This document shows positions 3,639 to 61,249 of a DNA stretch of 64,000 bases, piece after piece (within the stretch, counting starts at the first letter, position 1; the number at the start of each line of letters is the position of its first letter). Under the pieces are notes generated by a model. It ran no database searches. It was not told the origin of the DNA and saw only the letters and a program-made list of their open reading frames with translations. The position numbers and the translations under genes were made by a program. Origin of the DNA: Escherichia phage FL31. The stretch is taken from the sequence record PP400782; one strand, written 5' to 3'.

Positions 3639-3902
3639 TATAAATTCTCTTTAAATGAAAATGCAGGACTTATTGACATTGCCTGCGCAAGCCCTCAAGG
3701 GGAACATAGGTTTTGGATATTTAACGACAGGATAACCATAAACCTCGTCATCATACCAACCACGTCTTAGACAGATAACCTTTTTCTGACGCGTGATAGT
3801 ACAAAATACATTCAAGAGGTACACCGTAAAACTGCCGGGGACTTAAAACTATAATGATTCGCAAATCATTAATCAGACAGTTCGACGGCTCCTCGATTTA
3901 AC

Positions 3903-6537: not shown

Positions 6538-6657
6538 AACAATCCTTAGGAGATATAAACAGATTCTGATTCAACAATACCTTTAACCGGATTAGACAGG
6601 CTAAGTTGGTAGTGCTCAGATTTATGACCATTCTCGATAGTAATGAGATAGCTCTCA

Positions 6658-40780: not shown

Positions 40781-42994
40781 TTATTTGGCCGCTTCCACGG
40801 CCTTCATGAATTTAACGATTTGAGCGACCTGTTCTTTTGAAAGAGTACCACGTCGTCCCATGTATTCTGACACAATATGATAATTGGTTTCGAATTCGAT
40901 AACCATTTTATCATCATTATCGTAAGCATTATCTTTAAGCTTATCGAAAATTTTAGCACACAATTCTAACTTCTTATTCAGGTCTCTGTTATCAGCACCT
41001 GCGAATCGATTCCATCCCCAACGATTATTTACTGTTGAGAGTTTTGCAAAGTCTTTACTGATTTCTTTGTTCTTAGAGCTAAAATACTTACTAAGGAAGT
41101 TAAGCTCTTCATTACGAGTAATATGATTCAAATAAGGCTGTGCTCTACGACTTGGTGATACATACTCATCATAATCCACTTTATCGATTAGCGTAATATA
41201 GTCATTAATTGATTTTTCGAACAAGCATTCTACTTCACCAAGTTTACGAACTTTCTTAGCAATCTGTGGACGAACTACAGTGAACTCTTTAATACCTGAC
41301 AAATCAGCAATACGGGTCAAGAAATTGGAGTCATAGTTCAACCAACCTTTATCTGAGTCAAGACATTCAGCATTAGAACGATTACGAACTATAGCATAAC
41401 CTTGGATTTCATCTGCTTCACTTGCCGGAATAAAGAGGTCTTCTGATACCCAAACATCGTTTTCATTCTTAAAGAATCGATGAGCACTTGGGGATTTAGG
41501 ACGAGGCTCATTAGTCCGTTTCCTGACTTCAATCCATGGCTTAACGATTTGTAAAAGCTCTGAAGTCTTGTACATGTTAATGTTGTCGCCATCAAAGATA
41601 CCTTTAAGGCGTTCCAGAAGTTTCATTGCATCTTCGTCTGTAGGGTCAACGAATAGTACGCTTTTACCAAAACCGCGTGGAACTTTACCAGTTAATTTAA
41701 CCTCGTCTTTAGACATTTCAATTGAATTAAGAGCTCGCATTAATGGAACGCGTCCCTTAACGTCGTCAATAACAATTTCAACGTTTTTAATGTTAATGCC
41801 AATCAGGCTGTTAATTGAAATGGTTGATGATGAGCTACCACTTTCACGAATACGACGAAGACGAGGGGATTCAACGATATCGTATACGACGCCAAGATTA
41901 CACCACTCAGGCCCCATTTTAAAACGTTTGTACAACTCGGAATAAGTTAGTTGTTCTTTAGAGTATTTCAGTGATTCAATATTAGACCCAGCCTTTTCCA
42001 TGTATTTACGAGCGGTATAGCCAAGAGAATCAATTTCACGGAACACACGACGTGGGTATTTACAATCAATCCATTTCTTAGAATCTTCAGCGAACAATTT
42101 AGCATCGATTTCTGCAACGCGTTTATGGATATTTGCTACTGTACGTTTATCAAATGACAACGCTTCACGAGACGGGGCTACATCTAGTTCACCCATAGGG
42201 AATTTAATATAAGCTGTAGTGCATCGCGTCATCATCCATGTTTGTTCTTTAATAACACTTCCGATTGGATATACAATACCACCATAAACAGCCATGATAT
42301 TACCACGTTCACCCCATGGAGCTTCCTTGGCCAAATAAACGTCATCGAATTCCGGGAAGTATTTGATATCTTTAACACCGCGAACTTCTGCAATATCACC
42401 TAGAGGACGCATAACATATGCAATTTCGGATGCGAACTTTTCAAAATCTTCTGGATTAACCGGTACAACTACTTCTACACCCGTACGGTCATCAGGGCCC
42501 ATCTTATCTACAAAGGTTGGCTTAATTTGTGGACCTGTGTCATCTTGGTAGATTACGTAACCACGAACTTCACCATTATGATAAGAAGTAATGTTAAACG
42601 TATCGGTATATGCTAGTGGAGCTTTAGAGCCGAGTCCGAAACCACCAATGAAATCGTTACTCGATGTTTTAGTTGAAGCAAAATATGAGTTATAGATTCC
42701 TGGCTCTTCATCATTACCACGAATAGTGAAATCACTCATACCAGGACCAAAGTCTCGAACTACAAAACGTGGGTCTAAACGACCTGGAGCCTGAACAATA
42801 AACTTATCAGTGCAACCATTAAGAATTTGTCCATCGATACAGTTTGTGATTAATTCACGTACACAAGCCAATTCTTTGTTTGTATAAAGGTCATTAGACA
42901 AAATCTTATAAACTTTACTATTGCCTTGAATAGTAAATGCTGTGCTTTTACCACCAGAACCAATAATCGTTTCTTTAGCCGTTTCAATAATCAT
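40781..42994 (-). CDS. rIIA: rIIA protein
   Basis: 737 aa; N-terminal ATPase-like region ELITNCIDGQ...DFGPGMS...GGFGLGSKAP; size and position as T4 rIIA. Confidence 0.92.
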   Translation of the reverse strand: MIIETAKETIIGSGGKSTAFTIQGNSKVYKILSNDLYTNKELACVRELITNCIDGQILNGCTDKFIVQAPGRLDPRFVVRDFGPGMSDFTIRGNDEEPGIYNSYFASTKTSSNDFIGGFGLGSKAPLAYTDTFNITSYHNGEVRGYVIYQDDTGPQIKPTFVDKMGPDDRTGVEVVVPVNPEDFEKFASEIAYVMRPLGDIAEVRGVKDIKYFPEFDDVYLAKEAPWGERGNIMAVYGGIVYPIGSVIKEQTWMMTRCTTAYIKFPMGELDVAPSREALSFDKRTVANIHKRVAEIDAKLFAEDSKKWIDCKYPRRVFREIDSLGYTARKYMEKAGSNIESLKYSKEQLTYSELYKRFKMGPEWCNLGVVYDIVESPRLRRIRESGSSSSTISINSLIGINIKNVEIVIDDVKGRVPLMRALNSIEMSKDEVKLTGKVPRGFGKSVLFVDPTDEDAMKLLERLKGIFDGDNINMYKTSELLQIVKPWIEVRKRTNEPRPKSPSAHRFFKNENDVWVSEDLFIPASEADEIQGYAIVRNRSNAECLDSDKGWLNYDSNFLTRIADLSGIKEFTVVRPQIAKKVRKLGEVECLFEKSINDYITLIDKVDYDEYVSPSRRAQPYLNHITRNEELNFLSKYFSSKNKEISKDFAKLSTVNNRWGWNRFAGADNRDLNKKLELCAKIFDKLKDNAYDNDDKMVIEFETNYHIVSEYMGRRGTLSKEQVAQIVKFMKAVEAAK

Positions 42995-43006
42995 ATTTTT
43001 CTCTCA

Positions 43007-43207
43007 TCACAAGTTACGTTTAAAAATTTCTGCCACTTCGAGAAGTTCTTCTTTAGTAGCTGTATCGGTTTGTATTTTATATCGAATTTCTTTAAAGCGT
43101 TCTTTAAAGGACTCTGCTGACTCGATATCAAAAAATCTTTGGATAAGCCGGAATTCCCGGAGCACTGCTTTATCAAAAAGTTCCAAGTCCACATTATATG
43201 TTCTCAT
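43007..43207 (-). CDS. hypothetical protein (66 aa), rIIA.1-like
   Basis: ORF track; position upstream of rIIA. Confidence 0.5.
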   Translation of the reverse strand: MRTYNVDLELFDKAVLREFRLIQRFFDIESAESFKERFKEIRYKIQTDTATKEELLEVAEIFKRNL

Positions 43208-43299
43208 AATATTCTCTTCAGTAGATTCCTAGGGCACTATTACTAAAGACCATATAATCTATCATCTTATGTGTAATAGTGCCTCAGGCGATTCAGGAT

Positions 43300-44400
43300 T
43301 TACGCTGTGAAGATTTTATCCCACATCGCAACAACCGCATCTCGGTTATACTTCTTCCATACTGCTTCAGCACGTTTAACTCGAGCTTCGTATGTGTCAG
43401 TGAATTCTAATACAGCTTTTGTGTAAAGCGCAACTACTTCTTTCTTAGGAGTAGAGGAATCAATTTCTACACGCACAGTATCTGGGTCATATTCGAATGT
43501 CGCGTGCGGATAATCCTTAAAAACTAACTGGATTACAGGGACACCTTTAGAGATGGCTTCAATAGAACTATTCTCTACCGTACCTGTGTCAGGACACGTA
43601 TTAATAAGTGCTTTAGCTGTTTTAAGACGTTCCATGATTTCACTGTGTGGAGCATCAATAATAACAGGATATTTAGCTGGTGGCGCCCATTTGCTTGGAC
43701 AGTATCCTGCACCATTTTCGCCTAGTGCTTTAATCGCTTCAAGAGCAACATCAGTACGACGCATTTTAGTGTCATAACGTTGTGCACTAATAATCAGATC
43801 CGTCGCCGGAAGAACTTCAGGTTTCTCATTCAAACAAATAACCGGATAATCTTCGGCTTCAAACAACGGATTTGCTCGCCAATAATCATAATCAATTTTG
43901 TCAGTCAGACCTGAAGTCATATAACAATATTTGCGTTCAAATTCACGGAAGGCTTTAGTAGGAGCATAACTCTTACCACCGTTCTTATGAATTTGAATAG
44001 TCTGGTCCCAAATTTGAACAATGCCACGAGATACCGGTTCAAATGGTGTTGCCATAAAATTCTTATGAACTTTAGAGAGACCCGCGTCTTTAATTGCCTG
44101 AACGGTTAGTTTGGTCGGTTCCATTGTAACAACGAAATCATACTCATTAATGCCGGCTAGTTCAACAATCTTACGAGCCATAGTATAACTCATACCTAGA
44201 CTGAATTTAGTCAGATGACCAACAGGATGATGATTAACCTTCCAGTCACCAAACGTGTCATTATCAAAGCCGATATAATCAATATCAGCACCGATGGACA
44301 CAAGATATTTCAACACATTTAAATGTACTGCTTCAAGACCACCTTGTACACGTTCTGGGTTAAATGGGACTGCGCGAGATGGGATAAACATAACTTTCAT
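43300..44400 (-). CDS. putative GT-B fold glycosyltransferase (366 aa)
   Basis: C-terminal half has the GT4-type E-x7-E-like segment GTVENSSIEAISKGVPVIQ; lies between rIIA.1 and gene 39. Confidence 0.5.
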   Translation of the reverse strand: MKVMFIPSRAVPFNPERVQGGLEAVHLNVLKYLVSIGADIDYIGFDNDTFGDWKVNHHPVGHLTKFSLGMSYTMARKIVELAGINEYDFVVTMEPTKLTVQAIKDAGLSKVHKNFMATPFEPVSRGIVQIWDQTIQIHKNGGKSYAPTKAFREFERKYCYMTSGLTDKIDYDYWRANPLFEAEDYPVICLNEKPEVLPATDLIISAQRYDTKMRRTDVALEAIKALGENGAGYCPSKWAPPAKYPVIIDAPHSEIMERLKTAKALINTCPDTGTVENSSIEAISKGVPVIQLVFKDYPHATFEYDPDTVRVEIDSSTPKKEVVALYTKAVLEFTDTYEARVKRAEAVWKKYNRDAVVAMWDKIFTA

Positions 44401-44426
44401 AATTAAGCCTTATTAAAATTAAAATG

Positions 44427-44444
44427 AAGCTCCCGAAGGAGCTT
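44427..44444 (-). terminator. UUCG hairpin overlapping gene 39 stop codon
   Basis: AAGCUCC-UUCG-GGAGCUU then U/A-rich tract. Confidence 0.45.
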
Positions 44445-46260
44445 AGGACATCCATTCTTTACGAAGTTCTGAATCATCACCCAACAACATTTCAAAGAGT
44501 TCTTTCCAATTTTCAGGAAGTTTAACTACGTCGTACACAGGGTTCTGAATCATTTCACGATACTCTGACTTTTCAAGGGAGCCTAATCCCTTGATGTATC
44601 GAATACTATGCTTAGGCAGTGTATCTTTAACTTCTTCATACTCAGCTACAGTATAAAACCATTTTTGAGTTTTGCCAATTTGTGCAATAATTACAGGTGT
44701 TTTAACAAAGCGAATACGTCCTTGTTCAAACAATTCAGGCCAATTACTAAAGAAAGCAAGCAAAGCAGGATAAATACTTCCAAGACCGTCATGATCGGCA
44801 TCGGTCATAATTGCAATATTACGATAGTTCGTATTCTCTGCCTTTTCACCAAGAATAAGACCTGTGATAGCACAGATATCGAAGAGCTCTTTGTTCTTCA
44901 TCATATCAGCATATGACATACCCCAGCTATTCATCACCTTACCACGTAGTGGGAATCCGCCGTGTAGTTCACGGTCACGAACATCAATGAGATAACCAAT
45001 TGCAGAATCACCTTCTGTTAAAAACAATGTCGTATCTGCATCTTTACCACATTGGTTAGCTTTAATATGCTTATGAACCTTAGCTTTAGTTGCCTTTTTA
45101 GCTGCTTTAGTTTCTGCAGCCTTTTCTGCCGCCAATTTACGAGCTAATGCTGCTTCAACAATAGGCATAATCAAGGCTTCGTTTTTAAGAAGTGCTTGAG
45201 CAATTTTCTTAGCATCTAATTGGATATGATTACGAATATCACCATACGTTGACGTTAAACGTTCTTTAGTCTGAGAATCAAAACGCATGTTGCTCATGTC
45301 TCTAATAAACATCAACATTGTGAGACATTCTTTAACACGAGCTTTAGTGACTTCAATACCCTTATATTTCTTTTTAATACCCGGCAAAAGATGTTCGCAG
45401 ATATCGTCCATTACACATTCAACATGATGTCCACCATTTTTAGTATGGATATTATTCACATAAGTTAAATGACGGAAGCCATCTGGTGATGTTGTGAATG
45501 CTATAGAGACTTTATCATTTTCTTGAATGATGTTATCTTCACCAAATTGTTTAGCAAATCGTTTAAAATTACCGTCAACCTTTTTACCATTAAATGTGAA
45601 CTTGATATCAGGATAAACGACTGCCAATGTTTGAAGTCGGTCTAAAGTAATATCTAAATAAATTTGAGATAAATTATGCTCTTCAAATGAAGAGAAATCA
45701 GGAGTGAAGATTACTTTAGTGCCTTTATCTTTAGATTTCTTAGAAGACCATGATTTGTTTTCCATTCCGTTTGAACAGTTAACAGTGATTTCGTTTTCGC
45801 CATCTGACGTGATGCCTGTAAACAACGTAGAGAAGATATTAGTTAAACTACTTCCGACGCCGTTCATACCACCAGTCTTGCGTTCAGAATCATCACCAAA
45901 GTTACCACCAGCCTTTGGAATAGTCCAGGCTGCTACAGGCCCAGGAATTTGTTCACCTGTTTGGTCGGTAACTAAACCTTGAGGAATACCACGTCCGTTA
46001 TCTTCCACCGAAACTTGATTATTTTTAATTTGCACATCAATTTTATTTGCAAACTTAAATGATGTACGAATAGCTTCATCAACCGAGTTGTCAATAATCT
46101 CATCGATTAATTTAACCAGACCAGGAACATATTCAACTTGTTGATATTTACCAAACAAAAAACGCTCATGTGCTTCTTTAGCAGAAGAACCAATATACAT
46201 ACCACTACGTTTCTTAATATGTTCTACATCTGACAATACCTTAATTTCATTTTTAATCAT
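44443..46260 (-). CDS. 39: DNA topoisomerase II large subunit gp39 (fused 39+60, GyrB-like ATPase plus Toprim)
   Basis: 605 aa continuous ORF; ...NSVDEAI..., DNGRGIP, GGMNGVGSSL ATPase motifs. Confidence 0.92.
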   Translation of the reverse strand: MIKNEIKVLSDVEHIKKRSGMYIGSSAKEAHERFLFGKYQQVEYVPGLVKLIDEIIDNSVDEAIRTSFKFANKIDVQIKNNQVSVEDNGRGIPQGLVTDQTGEQIPGPVAAWTIPKAGGNFGDDSERKTGGMNGVGSSLTNIFSTLFTGITSDGENEITVNCSNGMENKSWSSKKSKDKGTKVIFTPDFSSFEEHNLSQIYLDITLDRLQTLAVVYPDIKFTFNGKKVDGNFKRFAKQFGEDNIIQENDKVSIAFTTSPDGFRHLTYVNNIHTKNGGHHVECVMDDICEHLLPGIKKKYKGIEVTKARVKECLTMLMFIRDMSNMRFDSQTKERLTSTYGDIRNHIQLDAKKIAQALLKNEALIMPIVEAALARKLAAEKAAETKAAKKATKAKVHKHIKANQCGKDADTTLFLTEGDSAIGYLIDVRDRELHGGFPLRGKVMNSWGMSYADMMKNKELFDICAITGLILGEKAENTNYRNIAIMTDADHDGLGSIYPALLAFFSNWPELFEQGRIRFVKTPVIIAQIGKTQKWFYTVAEYEEVKDTLPKHSIRYIKGLGSLEKSEYREMIQNPVYDVVKLPENWKELFEMLLGDDSELRKEWMS

Positions 46261-46277
46261 GTTGTCTCCTCGTTATG

Positions 46278-46310
46278 AAGGTATTCTATCATCCGAAATC
46301 TAAAGCAAAA
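46278..46310 (-). promoter_or_regulatory. possible MotA-dependent middle promoter for gene 39
   Basis: Minus-strand TGCTTTA (MotA-box-like) 14 nt upstream of TAGAAT -10-like hexamer. Confidence 0.3.
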
Positions 46311-46325
46311 AGGGCCGAAGCCCTT
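46310..46325 (-). terminator. intrinsic terminator upstream of gene 39
   Basis: AAGGGC-UUCG-GCCCUU then UUUGCUUU. Confidence 0.55.
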
Positions 46326-46746
46326 ATTTAAATTTAATTTTCTGAAGTGCATCAATTGCAGCCAAACGTCCTTGTTCACTTTTAACTGTAATGACCACAT
46401 CGCCTGATACGATCACCGAACCATCAACAAATTCTATAGAGCCTTTTTTGAAATCGACAGCTGTATCTGGTTCCGGAACTTCTTCAAAGAATTTAAATTC
46501 TGCACCATAAATTAGAATATCACCTTGCATACTAATGATTGTACGTCCAGGTCCATCGGTTTCAGCGGCAATCATTGAAACACCGTAACCAATCATCTCT
46601 TCTACAATAAAATCTCTTGATAATAAAACTGTATGCAGAGTAGTGTTAAGACGTTTACCAGTCGTATTAAGAATTCTCAAGAAATTATCTTCCTGTCCTT
46701 TGATAATACGATATTTCTTACCAACTTCAAAACCTTTAAAAGCCAT
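46324..46746 (-). CDS. hypothetical protein (140 aa)
   Basis: ORF track; terminator hairpin 46310-46325 immediately downstream. Confidence 0.5.
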   Translation of the reverse strand: MAFKGFEVGKKYRIIKGQEDNFLRILNTTGKRLNTTLHTVLLSRDFIVEEMIGYGVSMIAAETDGPGRTIISMQGDILIYGAEFKFFEEVPEPDTAVDFKKGSIEFVDGSVIVSGDVVITVKSEQGRLAAIDALQKIKFK

Positions 46747-47587: not shown

Positions 47588-47626
47588 GATAGGTCTATAG
47601 TATCATAGACTATAGTTGTTGTACAT
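47588..47626 (-). promoter_or_regulatory. early-type promoter (ATGTAC ... TACTAT)
   Basis: Minus-strand read. Confidence 0.4.
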
Positions 47627-48150: not shown

Positions 48151-48163
48151 ATTATTCTCCTCT

Positions 48164-48205
48164 GGTTGATATGGTTATAATATCAAAACCAGAGGAGAAG
48201 TAAAC
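48164..48205 (-). promoter_or_regulatory. early-type promoter (GTTTAC ... TATTAT)
   Basis: Minus-strand read; 10-bp inverted repeat TCCTCTGGTT/AACCAGAGGA whose downstream arm contains the SD of ORF 47626-48150. Confidence 0.5.
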
Positions 48206-53594: not shown

Positions 53595-54175
53595 TAAAAA
53601 TTCAACATTTTCAAATGAATGATTTTGTATAATCTAGATAAAGGGTCATATTCTAAGTCTTCAATTTCCACAATCTCAAATCTAGAGATACCTGAGACCA
53701 TGTACTCTTGTTCAGATTCAATCATATCTAGGACGTCAACACGCTTTTCTTCCATAACATGCTTAGGGTTCTTTCCGGCGAGTACAATGTTAATCATGTT
53801 TTGGTAGTAATCAAAAATGAATGGAGCATTCCTGAGACTAAGAATAGTGTACGTCTGATATTCCCATCTCCCAGAGAATTGACGAGCTGTACTGAAATCA
53901 GTTGTGAACGATGTTACTCGTCCAGGAGACCAATGGCATCCAACAGAAAGAAGAGAAAGACGTTCTACTTCTTCTGGAGTTACACCACGGTAGAGTTCTA
54001 CTGGTACTGTAGAAGTCATATGCTTACGAACAAGATGGTCTAATTCATAGTGGAAATCCGGGTCTTCCTTAGAATCAGTGCAAGCCCAGAGAATGTTTTG
54101 TTCTTGGCGGGTGAATTTGCTATCAATAAGATTTGTTAGGTATTCACGTTCTTGAAGTTCAGATTGACATGTCAT
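53594..54175 (-). CDS. modB: Mod-family ADP-ribosyltransferase (193 aa), ModB-like
   Basis: R-S-E motif candidates: LYRGV, FSTARQ, ESEQEYMV; shares ILW(A/Q)C..., YRG, F(I/A)F(D/N)... blocks with ModA-like gene. Confidence 0.55.
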   Translation of the reverse strand: MTCQSELQEREYLTNLIDSKFTRQEQNILWACTDSKEDPDFHYELDHLVRKHMTSTVPVELYRGVTPEEVERLSLLSVGCHWSPGRVTSFTTDFSTARQFSGRWEYQTYTILSLRNAPFIFDYYQNMINIVLAGKNPKHVMEEKRVDVLDMIESEQEYMVSGISRFEIVEIEDLEYDPLSRLYKIIHLKMLNF

Positions 54176-54192
54176 GATAGACCTCCATTTAA

Positions 54193-54231
54193 AGATAAGC
54201 CTATCATAACATGAGAGGAGGGAATGTAAAC
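54193..54231 (-). promoter_or_regulatory. early-type promoter (GTTTAC ... TATGAT) upstream of modB-like gene
   Basis: Minus-strand read. Confidence 0.45.
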
Positions 54232-59899: not shown

Positions 59900-59938
59900 G
59901 ATAGGACTACTATACTATAGTCCATCTATAATGTAAAC
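59900..59938 (-). promoter_or_regulatory. early-type promoter (GTTTAC ... TATAGT) upstream of sp
   Basis: Minus-strand read; inverted repeat GGACTAT/ATAGTCC around -10. Confidence 0.5.
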
Positions 59939-61195: not shown

Positions 61196-61208
61196 TTTGT
61201 TCTCCAGT

Positions 61209-61249
61209 AGTTGATAGGTCTATAATAACACAACTACTGGAGAAGTAAA
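61209..61249 (-). promoter_or_regulatory. early-type promoter (GTTTAC ... TATTAT) for the 105-aa ORF/dmd pair
   Basis: Minus-strand read; 9-bp inverted repeat CCAGTAGTT/AACTACTGG, downstream arm overlapping the SD. Confidence 0.5.

Follow-up and report, generated by a model that had tools for sequence, protein, structure and literature searches.

The inverted repeat between the glycosyltransferase gene and rIIA.1 of this phage encodes a real, genus-specific and previously unannotated stem-loop that lies between two cistrons of one message. From its position, strand and stability, which we observe directly together with the absence of other signals at the site, we infer that it may act as a barrier to mRNA decay or processing, which would give the transferase and rII segments of the transcript separate lifetimes. 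We hold this reading tentatively, with a probability of about 0.4.

The window, by which we mean the whole 64,000-nucleotide stretch analysed, is the genome of a Mosigvirus (RB69-like T-even phage), and the locus is 96–100% identical to 154 Mosigvirus genomes. Window coordinates correspond to those of RB69 (AY303349) plus 40780, which places the repeat at RB69 2453-2503. The GC content across the locus is 0.36-0.40, with no compositional anomaly. The minus strand carries every gene at the locus, in the order 60plus39, transferase, rIIA.1 and rIIA, and the relevant features are the following:

46283 to 46307, minus strand: MotA-type middle promoter (TGCTTTAG...TAGAAT) upstream of 60plus39, matching the RB69-predicted Pm:5538
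46260 to 44443, minus strand: topoisomerase gene 60plus39
44415 to 44444, minus strand: C(UUCG)G hairpin with a U-rich tail, an intrinsic terminator between 60plus39 and the transferase gene (RB69 prediction 3649-3662)
43300 to 44400, minus strand: glycosyltransferase gene (366 aa, stop codon at 43302-43300), homologue of RB69 ORF003c, a putative DNA arabinosyltransferase
43208 to 43299, minus strand: intercistronic spacer of 92 nt, from the glycosyltransferase stop to the rIIA.1 start
43228 to 43288, minus strand (sense RNA): full irregular hairpin, 61 nt, about 23 bp
43273 to 43283: right arm of the repeat, the exact reverse complement of the left arm; GTAATAGTGCC on the plus strand, and the 5' arm GGCACUAUUAC in minus-strand RNA
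43253 to 43258, plus strand: TATAAT hexamer near the apex of the hairpin, on the strand antisense to every local gene
43233 to 43243: left arm of the perfect 11-bp repeat; GGCACTATTAC on the plus strand, and the 3' arm GUAAUAGUGCC in minus-strand RNA
43219 to 43214, minus strand: Shine-Dalgarno-like GAAGAG of rIIA.1, outside the hairpin
43007 to 43207, minus strand: rIIA.1 (66 aa; Pfam PF24210, E = 2e-30)
42994 to 40781, minus strand: rIIA

The naming of ORF003c as a putative DNA arabinosyltransferase follows published work (PMC6024577, PMC13326640). Given the minus-strand orientation of all local genes, the repeat follows the glycosyltransferase gene and precedes rIIA.1, whose start (43207) lies about 20 nt away. 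The earlier note on this DNA had described a perfect 11-bp inverted repeat around a TATAAT-containing loop in this spacer, and the element is indeed there, with arms at 43233-43243 and 43273-43283 that stand 29 nt apart and CCATATAATCTATC in the loop. Its placement upstream of the glycosyltransferase was mistaken, as the repeat lies 3' of that gene's stop codon and 5' of the rIIA.1 start. Since the element is sited at the 3' end of the glycosyltransferase gene, it cannot act upstream of it, and if it controls anything, the control falls on the 3' end of the transferase message and/or on the 5' side of rIIA.1-rIIA.

The complementarity of the arms extends to 16 nt (43228-43243 with 43273-43288, 88% complementary). 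From its base upward, the hairpin consists of 4 bp, an A.C mismatch, the 11 bp of the repeat and an internal loop ACAU/UA, followed by 5 bp (43264-43268 with 43246-43250), a G.G mismatch and 3 bp (43260-43262 with 43252-43254) that close an apical loop GAUUA (43255-43259), so that the nominal 29-nt loop pairs internally in 5-bp and 3-bp stems of its own. The structure starts 11 nt past the transferase stop codon and ends 8 nt ahead of the rIIA.1 Shine-Dalgarno sequence, and the only repeat that flanks it is GATT, offset by one base.

On their own the arms are no more than chance would give, because about 1.0 perfect 11-bp inverted repeat with a spacing of 3-40 nt is expected per 64 kb in first-order Markov simulations. 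The whole hairpin, unlike its arms alone, exceeds chance: within a 121-nt context its z-score is -4.36, and none of 200 dinucleotide shuffles folds as well. The sense-RNA hairpin reaches -28.5 kcal/mol within its 95-nt spacer context (-27.2 for the isolated 61 nt) and ranks first for stability among the 12,786 sliding 70-nt minus-strand windows of the 64 kb (mean -10.6, sd 3.9), by a modest margin over the next windows at -26.7 and -25.6 kcal/mol. The 11-bp arms pair with a probability of 1.0 in every RNA context from 123 to 401 nt. The plus-strand RNA version is weaker (-22.6 to -23.8 kcal/mol), and as single-stranded DNA the hairpin has -10.7 to -11.6 kcal/mol. Folding, which had been suggested as a check on the element, returns a stable hairpin that is strongest as minus-strand RNA.

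To place the hairpin within a transcript, we considered the promoters that could reach it. Between 47650 and 42900 the only promoter motifs are the MotA-type one at 46307-46283, the closest from which transcription could pass through the hairpin, and the nearest early promoter, with its -10 at 47602; both are on the minus strand and agree with published RB69 predictions. As these are the sole read-through promoters, the hairpin is transcribed inside one message running from 60plus39 through the transferase gene and rIIA.1 to rIIA. A search of the coding strand from 42900 to 46400 for a MotA box (TGCTT 11-13 nt before TAnnnT) returned only 46307-46283 and none at the hairpin, and the late-promoter box TATAAATA is absent from both strands of the same interval. 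In the RB69 predictions of Nolan et al. (2006), likewise, neither a terminator nor a promoter of the early, middle or late class falls at RB69 2453-2503. Directly after the 60plus39 stop, and 15 nt ahead of the transferase start, comes the C(UUCG)G hairpin at 44415-44444, which is the genuine intrinsic terminator of the unit and presumably a leaky one. With no promoter beyond it, the transferase gene, rIIA.1 and rIIA apparently need read-through of this terminator.

The mRNA of T4-type phages is attacked at its 5' end by RNase E/G and from 3' ends by RNase II, RNase R and PNPase, and RNA secondary structure protects T4 messages from cleavage (PMC3014915). Acting post-transcriptionally in the pre-replicative polycistronic mRNA of 60plus39, the arabinosyltransferase gene, rIIA.1 and rIIA, the hairpin would halt the exonucleases of the host that work 3'->5' (RNase II, RNase R, PNPase) and start at cuts made 3' of it, leaving a longer-lived transferase segment. 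Against RNase E/G attack, which depends on 5' ends and would begin upstream, it would likewise protect the rIIA.1-rIIA segment beyond it, and the outcome would be two halves of a single transcript with separate lifetimes. A 23-bp hairpin that begins 11 nt past one stop codon and stops 8 nt short of the following ribosome site has the classic layout of an intercistronic decay barrier.

The REP hairpins of malE-malF in E. coli and the intercistronic hairpins of puf in Rhodobacter are mRNA stabilisers in polycistronic operons. Our hairpin resembles them in being a stable stem-loop after the stop codon of the upstream cistron, with no U tract and within one transcription unit, and by this likeness a block to 3' exonucleases and differing stabilities of the two segments would be expected. 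Unlike REP, it is single-copy, has a large structured loop and is unrelated in sequence, with no match in E. coli genomes or plasmids. A literature search found no transcriptome, transcript-end or half-life data for RB69 or any Mosigvirus. If the hairpin does work, it would show how RB69-type phages, from one transcript, tune the enzyme that puts a second arabinose on their modified cytosines against the neighbouring rII genes, and it would offer a convenient single-copy element for the study of mRNA-decay barriers in T-even infection. Beyond annotation the result matters little; what is gained is the correction that the element is part of the transferase cistron, at its 3' end, and is not a promoter.

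The main rival to the decay barrier is that the hairpin is a neutral relic, a quasi-palindrome that arose as a mutational by-product (such as an inverted duplication by snap-back or template switching) during insertion of the transferase gene at a hypervariable junction, and was kept since by the similarity of Mosigvirus genomes to one another. We regard this as unlikely, although several observations speak for it. Homology with T4-type phages stops at 43216, 9 nt before the rIIA.1 AUG, and the 60plus39/rIIA.1 junction is hypervariable across Tevenvirinae, differing in every genus examined. The T4-type phage SA21RB, with a fused gene 39, has a 54-nt spacer there with an early promoter and a small spacer dyad; IME08 has a 580-bp gap in the annotation that contains two small ORFs and a terminator/promoter cassette; Moon and UPEC07 have two or three small ORFs with terminator/promoter cassettes; the Tegunavirus phiR1-RT has one small ORF and no transferase gene; and Mosigvirus has the arabinosyltransferase gene. 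The idea that the hairpin travels with this gene was rejected, as the transferase homologues of Acinetobacter phages (42% identical) lie elsewhere, adjoin gene 40 and have an unrelated UUCG hairpin after them. Against a relic stand the tight packing of T-even genomes, in which a signal-free 92-nt spacer would be unusual, the rank of this fold as the most stable of the 64 kb with a second tier of inner pairing, and the absence of indels in 26 copies.

Variation within the genus bears on both readings. The element is restricted to Mosigvirus, where it occurs in 154 records at no less than 96% identity and at the orthologous locus only. Among 26 copies, representing 15 haplotypes, the spacer length is invariant. 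The hairpin is kept in all 15 haplotypes, and the nine that were folded have -23 kcal/mol or better. In the alignment of nine haplotypes (at least 96% identity), none of the 24 pairs is changed on both sides, and four pairs show one-sided, wobble-compatible changes. Pair 41-85 is disrupted in RB69 and pair 33-93 in the TH58 group, and pair 37-89 is mismatched except in AV114, where an adjacent CT->TC change converts G.U and A.C into G-C and A-U and produces a perfect 16-bp stem of -35.3 kcal/mol. This AV114 change, like the retention of the hairpin across haplotypes, counts for a decay barrier; it is also what templated quasi-palindrome correction would be expected to yield if the hairpin were a relic.

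The lack of compensatory changes, a variability higher than that of the mostly coding flanks (12 of 61 columns variable in the hairpin vs 4 of 65) and the A.C mismatch that the type phage RB69 carries inside the 11-bp stem count against a decay barrier, and the lack of covariation and of a clear purifying signal, together with the higher variability, speaks for a relic. We compared the observed substitutions with random ones of the same class for their destabilisation of the fold, which gave P = 0.024 with 10 variants; with 13 variants, P was 0.05 for minus-strand RNA, 0.11 for plus-strand RNA and 0.04-0.07 for DNA. Without AV114 the value is P = 0.30, so the borderline result hangs on one phage. 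The conservation of the hairpin is real but uninformative on selection, because the diversity within Mosigvirus (at least 96% identity) is too shallow for the comparison to say much, and the retention of the hairpin could reflect too little time to decay in one genus of such similarity. The non-Watson-Crick positions are wobble-compatible in 5 of 7 cases on minus-strand RNA vs two on plus-strand RNA; this direction, together with the folding energies, makes us lean toward the sense-strand RNA as the form that matters.

Two of the related phages show peculiarities at this locus. Shigella phage JK45 (NC_054940), whose record is classed as Tequatrovirus yet is Mosigvirus-like here, carries an exact 503-bp tandem duplication (1207-1709 and 1710-2212 of the stretch examined) that takes in the terminal ~395 nt of the transferase gene, all of the spacer and the initial 16 nt of rIIA.1. 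The duplication creates two copies of the hairpin and a fusion ORF of rIIA.1 and transferase, with the junction away from the hairpin, and may be a real product of illegitimate recombination or an assembly artefact. In AV114 (OR352944), an annotated homing endonuclease (1-458 of the stretch examined) stands directly upstream of the transferase gene, in the place that the topoisomerase gene has in the window, and recalls T4 mobA at the same locus. The rIIA.1 gene of AV114 (1664-1894 of the stretch examined) is annotated 30 nt too long, from a GTG in the hairpin arm, because the CT->TC change removes an in-frame TAG. This longer form of rIIA.1, starting inside the 3' arm, was rejected as a general reading, since the in-frame TAG blocks it in the window and in most relatives.

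The early region of phage T7 contains the RNase III processing sites R0.3 to R1.3 between its cistrons. Our hairpin is like these sites in being an irregular, intercistronic structure of about 60 nt with an internal loop that is neither promoter nor terminator, and a double-strand-specific endonuclease such as host RNase III might cut it and so separate the transferase and rII messages. The predicted geometry would fit, with 61 nt, about 23 bp over two helical turns and an asymmetric internal loop, and so would the location between cistrons with no terminator function. We nevertheless consider cleavage of this kind improbable: there is no sequence similarity to the T7 sites, a search of Rfam over the hairpin gave no match even at E <= 10, and RNase III is not known to process the mRNAs of T4-type phages, the term being absent from a 2010 review of T4 post-transcriptional control. 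Somewhat broader, and doubtful to a similar or greater degree, is the idea of a dedicated regulatory RNA restricted to the genus, which a double-strand-specific nuclease would cleave or a phage protein would bind as its operator, and which would set the output of the arabinosyltransferase against that of the rII exclusion-protection proteins. If true, it would be a kind of intercistronic processing undescribed for T4-type phages.

It is also quite improbable that the hairpin is a transcriptional pause site or partial terminator (attenuator) that lowers read-through into rIIA.1-rIIA, although a very stable nascent-RNA hairpin does form just past a stop codon, as it does in the intrinsic terminator at 44444-44415. 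Unlike intrinsic terminators, the hairpin has AU-rich arms and a large, irregular and structured 29-nt loop, vs 3-8 nt, and its 3' flank, CUAGGAAUCUACUGAAG (CUAGGAAUCUACUG), has no U tract, on which grounds an intrinsic terminator was rejected. The hairpin is absent from our intrinsic-terminator scan and from the TransTerm list for RB69, a list that does include the hairpin upstream of the transferase gene. Moreover, as no promoter for rIIA lies beyond the hairpin, efficient termination there would silence that gene.

Several further identities were tried and rejected. T4 genes e, soc, 49 and I-TevI have hairpins that silence read-through messages (PMC3014915). A hairpin that sequesters a ribosome site in the manner of e, soc and 49 does not apply here, as the stem ends at 43228 and leaves the rIIA.1 GAAGAG outside; in contexts of 161-401 nt this motif has a pairing probability of 0.37-0.41 and is mostly unpaired. 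Translational coupling through a UCUUCA:UGAAGA helix, in which the last transferase codons would hide the rIIA.1 site, was dismissed, the helix forming only in a 126-nt context. The hairpin is not a PeSL cassette (PMC2839356, PMC4122927), as it has no promoter and its arm sequence has no second copy in the window and, in databases, occurs at the orthologous locus alone. Nor is it a MITE, other repeated mobile DNA or a host-derived sequence: the search for further copies of the palindrome that the earlier note had advised found the element single-copy in the window, phage records contain it at the orthologous Mosigvirus locus alone, and searches of IMG/VR, of JGI metagenomes and of E. coli genomes and plasmids found no copy. 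The sole non-Mosigvirus match to the hairpin loop, 21 of 23 positions at ~6555-6577 of the metagenome contig Ga0157358_1002706, is taken as chance because its flanks are unrelated, the arms are missing and the collection is very large. A 15-codon micro-ORF from an AUG in the loop to a UGA in the ribosome-site region is not coding, because nearly all substitutions alter the amino acid, with one synonymous change only on manual translation of the variant columns. A replication origin was rejected since T4 oriA lies near soc and not at this locus, and a translational bypass like that of T4 gene 60 since no matched take-off and landing codons could be read from the sequence.

The weakest alternative is a DNA-level site, in which a TATAAT promoter flanked by an operator-like palindrome would let a regulator control the glycosyltransferase; we regard it as very improbable, since the hexamer faces away from every gene, has neither a -35 element nor a TG extension, and lies at the 3' end of the gene supposedly controlled, while the half-sites are 40 bp apart with the sequence between them paired, as in a hairpin and not an operator. 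What gives the idea its appeal is that a consensus -10 hexamer lies between the arms of a perfect 11-bp palindrome, in a phage whose genuine early promoters often bear dyads around the -10.

A scan with promoter consensus sequences found nothing at the repeat. We also built a two-block weight matrix from the 12 strict early promoters of the window, all on the minus strand and of the form GTTTAC-N17/18-TAyTAT. Real sites score 28-44 bits on this matrix vs -34.6 bits for the TATAAT at 43253 (plus strand), which is the 39th percentile of all positions; the best scores within 43200-43330 are -6.4 (plus) and -9.6 (minus), and no plus-strand site reaches 10 bits. The block adjoining the -10, scored alone, is unremarkable at the repeat. 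The plus strand has no gene for TATAAT to serve, the hexamer pointing into the antisense of the transferase gene. The window contains 83 copies of TATAAT where 80 +/- 9 are expected, and the one in the hairpin is a chance match on the non-coding strand. A decayed early promoter on the minus strand, TATTAC-N16-TATATG, was discarded for its wrong spacing, wrong essential -7 T and negative score. A promoter of any T4 class on either strand is thus rejected by the scans, the matrix scores and the published RB69 lists. The earlier note had offered two roles, a regulator binding site or a structured processing signal; the first falls with the wrong strand, the missing -35 and the matrix score, and the second, as an RNA signal, stays the best reading.

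With the promoter-embedded dyads of T4-type phages, the hairpin shares an intergenic inverted repeat and a -10-like hexamer in the loop. In genuine promoter dyads of the window, GTTTAC precedes TAyTAT by 17-18 nt on the minus strand, and the 3' arm holds a Shine-Dalgarno sequence; the hairpin, unlike them, has no -35 on either strand, a negative score, its hexamer on the wrong strand and the ribosome site outside the stem. The statement that its arms are longer and more perfect than those of the other promoter-associated dyads did not hold up, as perfect arms of 13 bp (48155-48199) and 14 bp (61200-61244) occur in the window. These two, together with a 10-bp dyad at 2912-2946, are perfect dyads that contain early promoters on the minus strand (GTTTAC-N17-TATTAT, 37-40 bits); each of the three places its 5' arm in the promoter spacer and its loop around the -10. 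The -10 elements of these three dyads read as TATAAT on the plus strand. In this genome, a plus-strand TATAAT inside a dyad usually mirrors the -10 of a minus-strand early promoter (TATTATA), and that of the hairpin does not.

At 48155-48199 and 61200-61244, the 3' arm bears the Shine-Dalgarno sequence GGAGAA, 4 nt before the AUG, so that a read-through RNA would hide the ribosome site and an RNA initiated at the promoter would not. The arrangement recalls the one known from T4 genes e, soc and 49, with early promoters in this case. The 3' arm at 2912-2946 (CCUGUACCAA) has no Shine-Dalgarno sequence, and GGAGAA follows ~20 nt further downstream. A second type of promoter dyad has arms such as (T)AGGACTA / TAGTCCT(A) that straddle the -10, with minus-strand -10 elements starting at 59914, 47602, 38986, 38474 and 18755, and pairs the promoter spacer with the conserved start-site region TATAGACCTATCA. 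Finally, an 18-bp hairpin at 54160-54225 (-22.9 kcal/mol as minus-strand RNA) lies at a 35-nt gap between divergent ORFs (54175 on the minus strand and 54211 on the plus strand) and overlaps an early promoter with its -10 at 54208.
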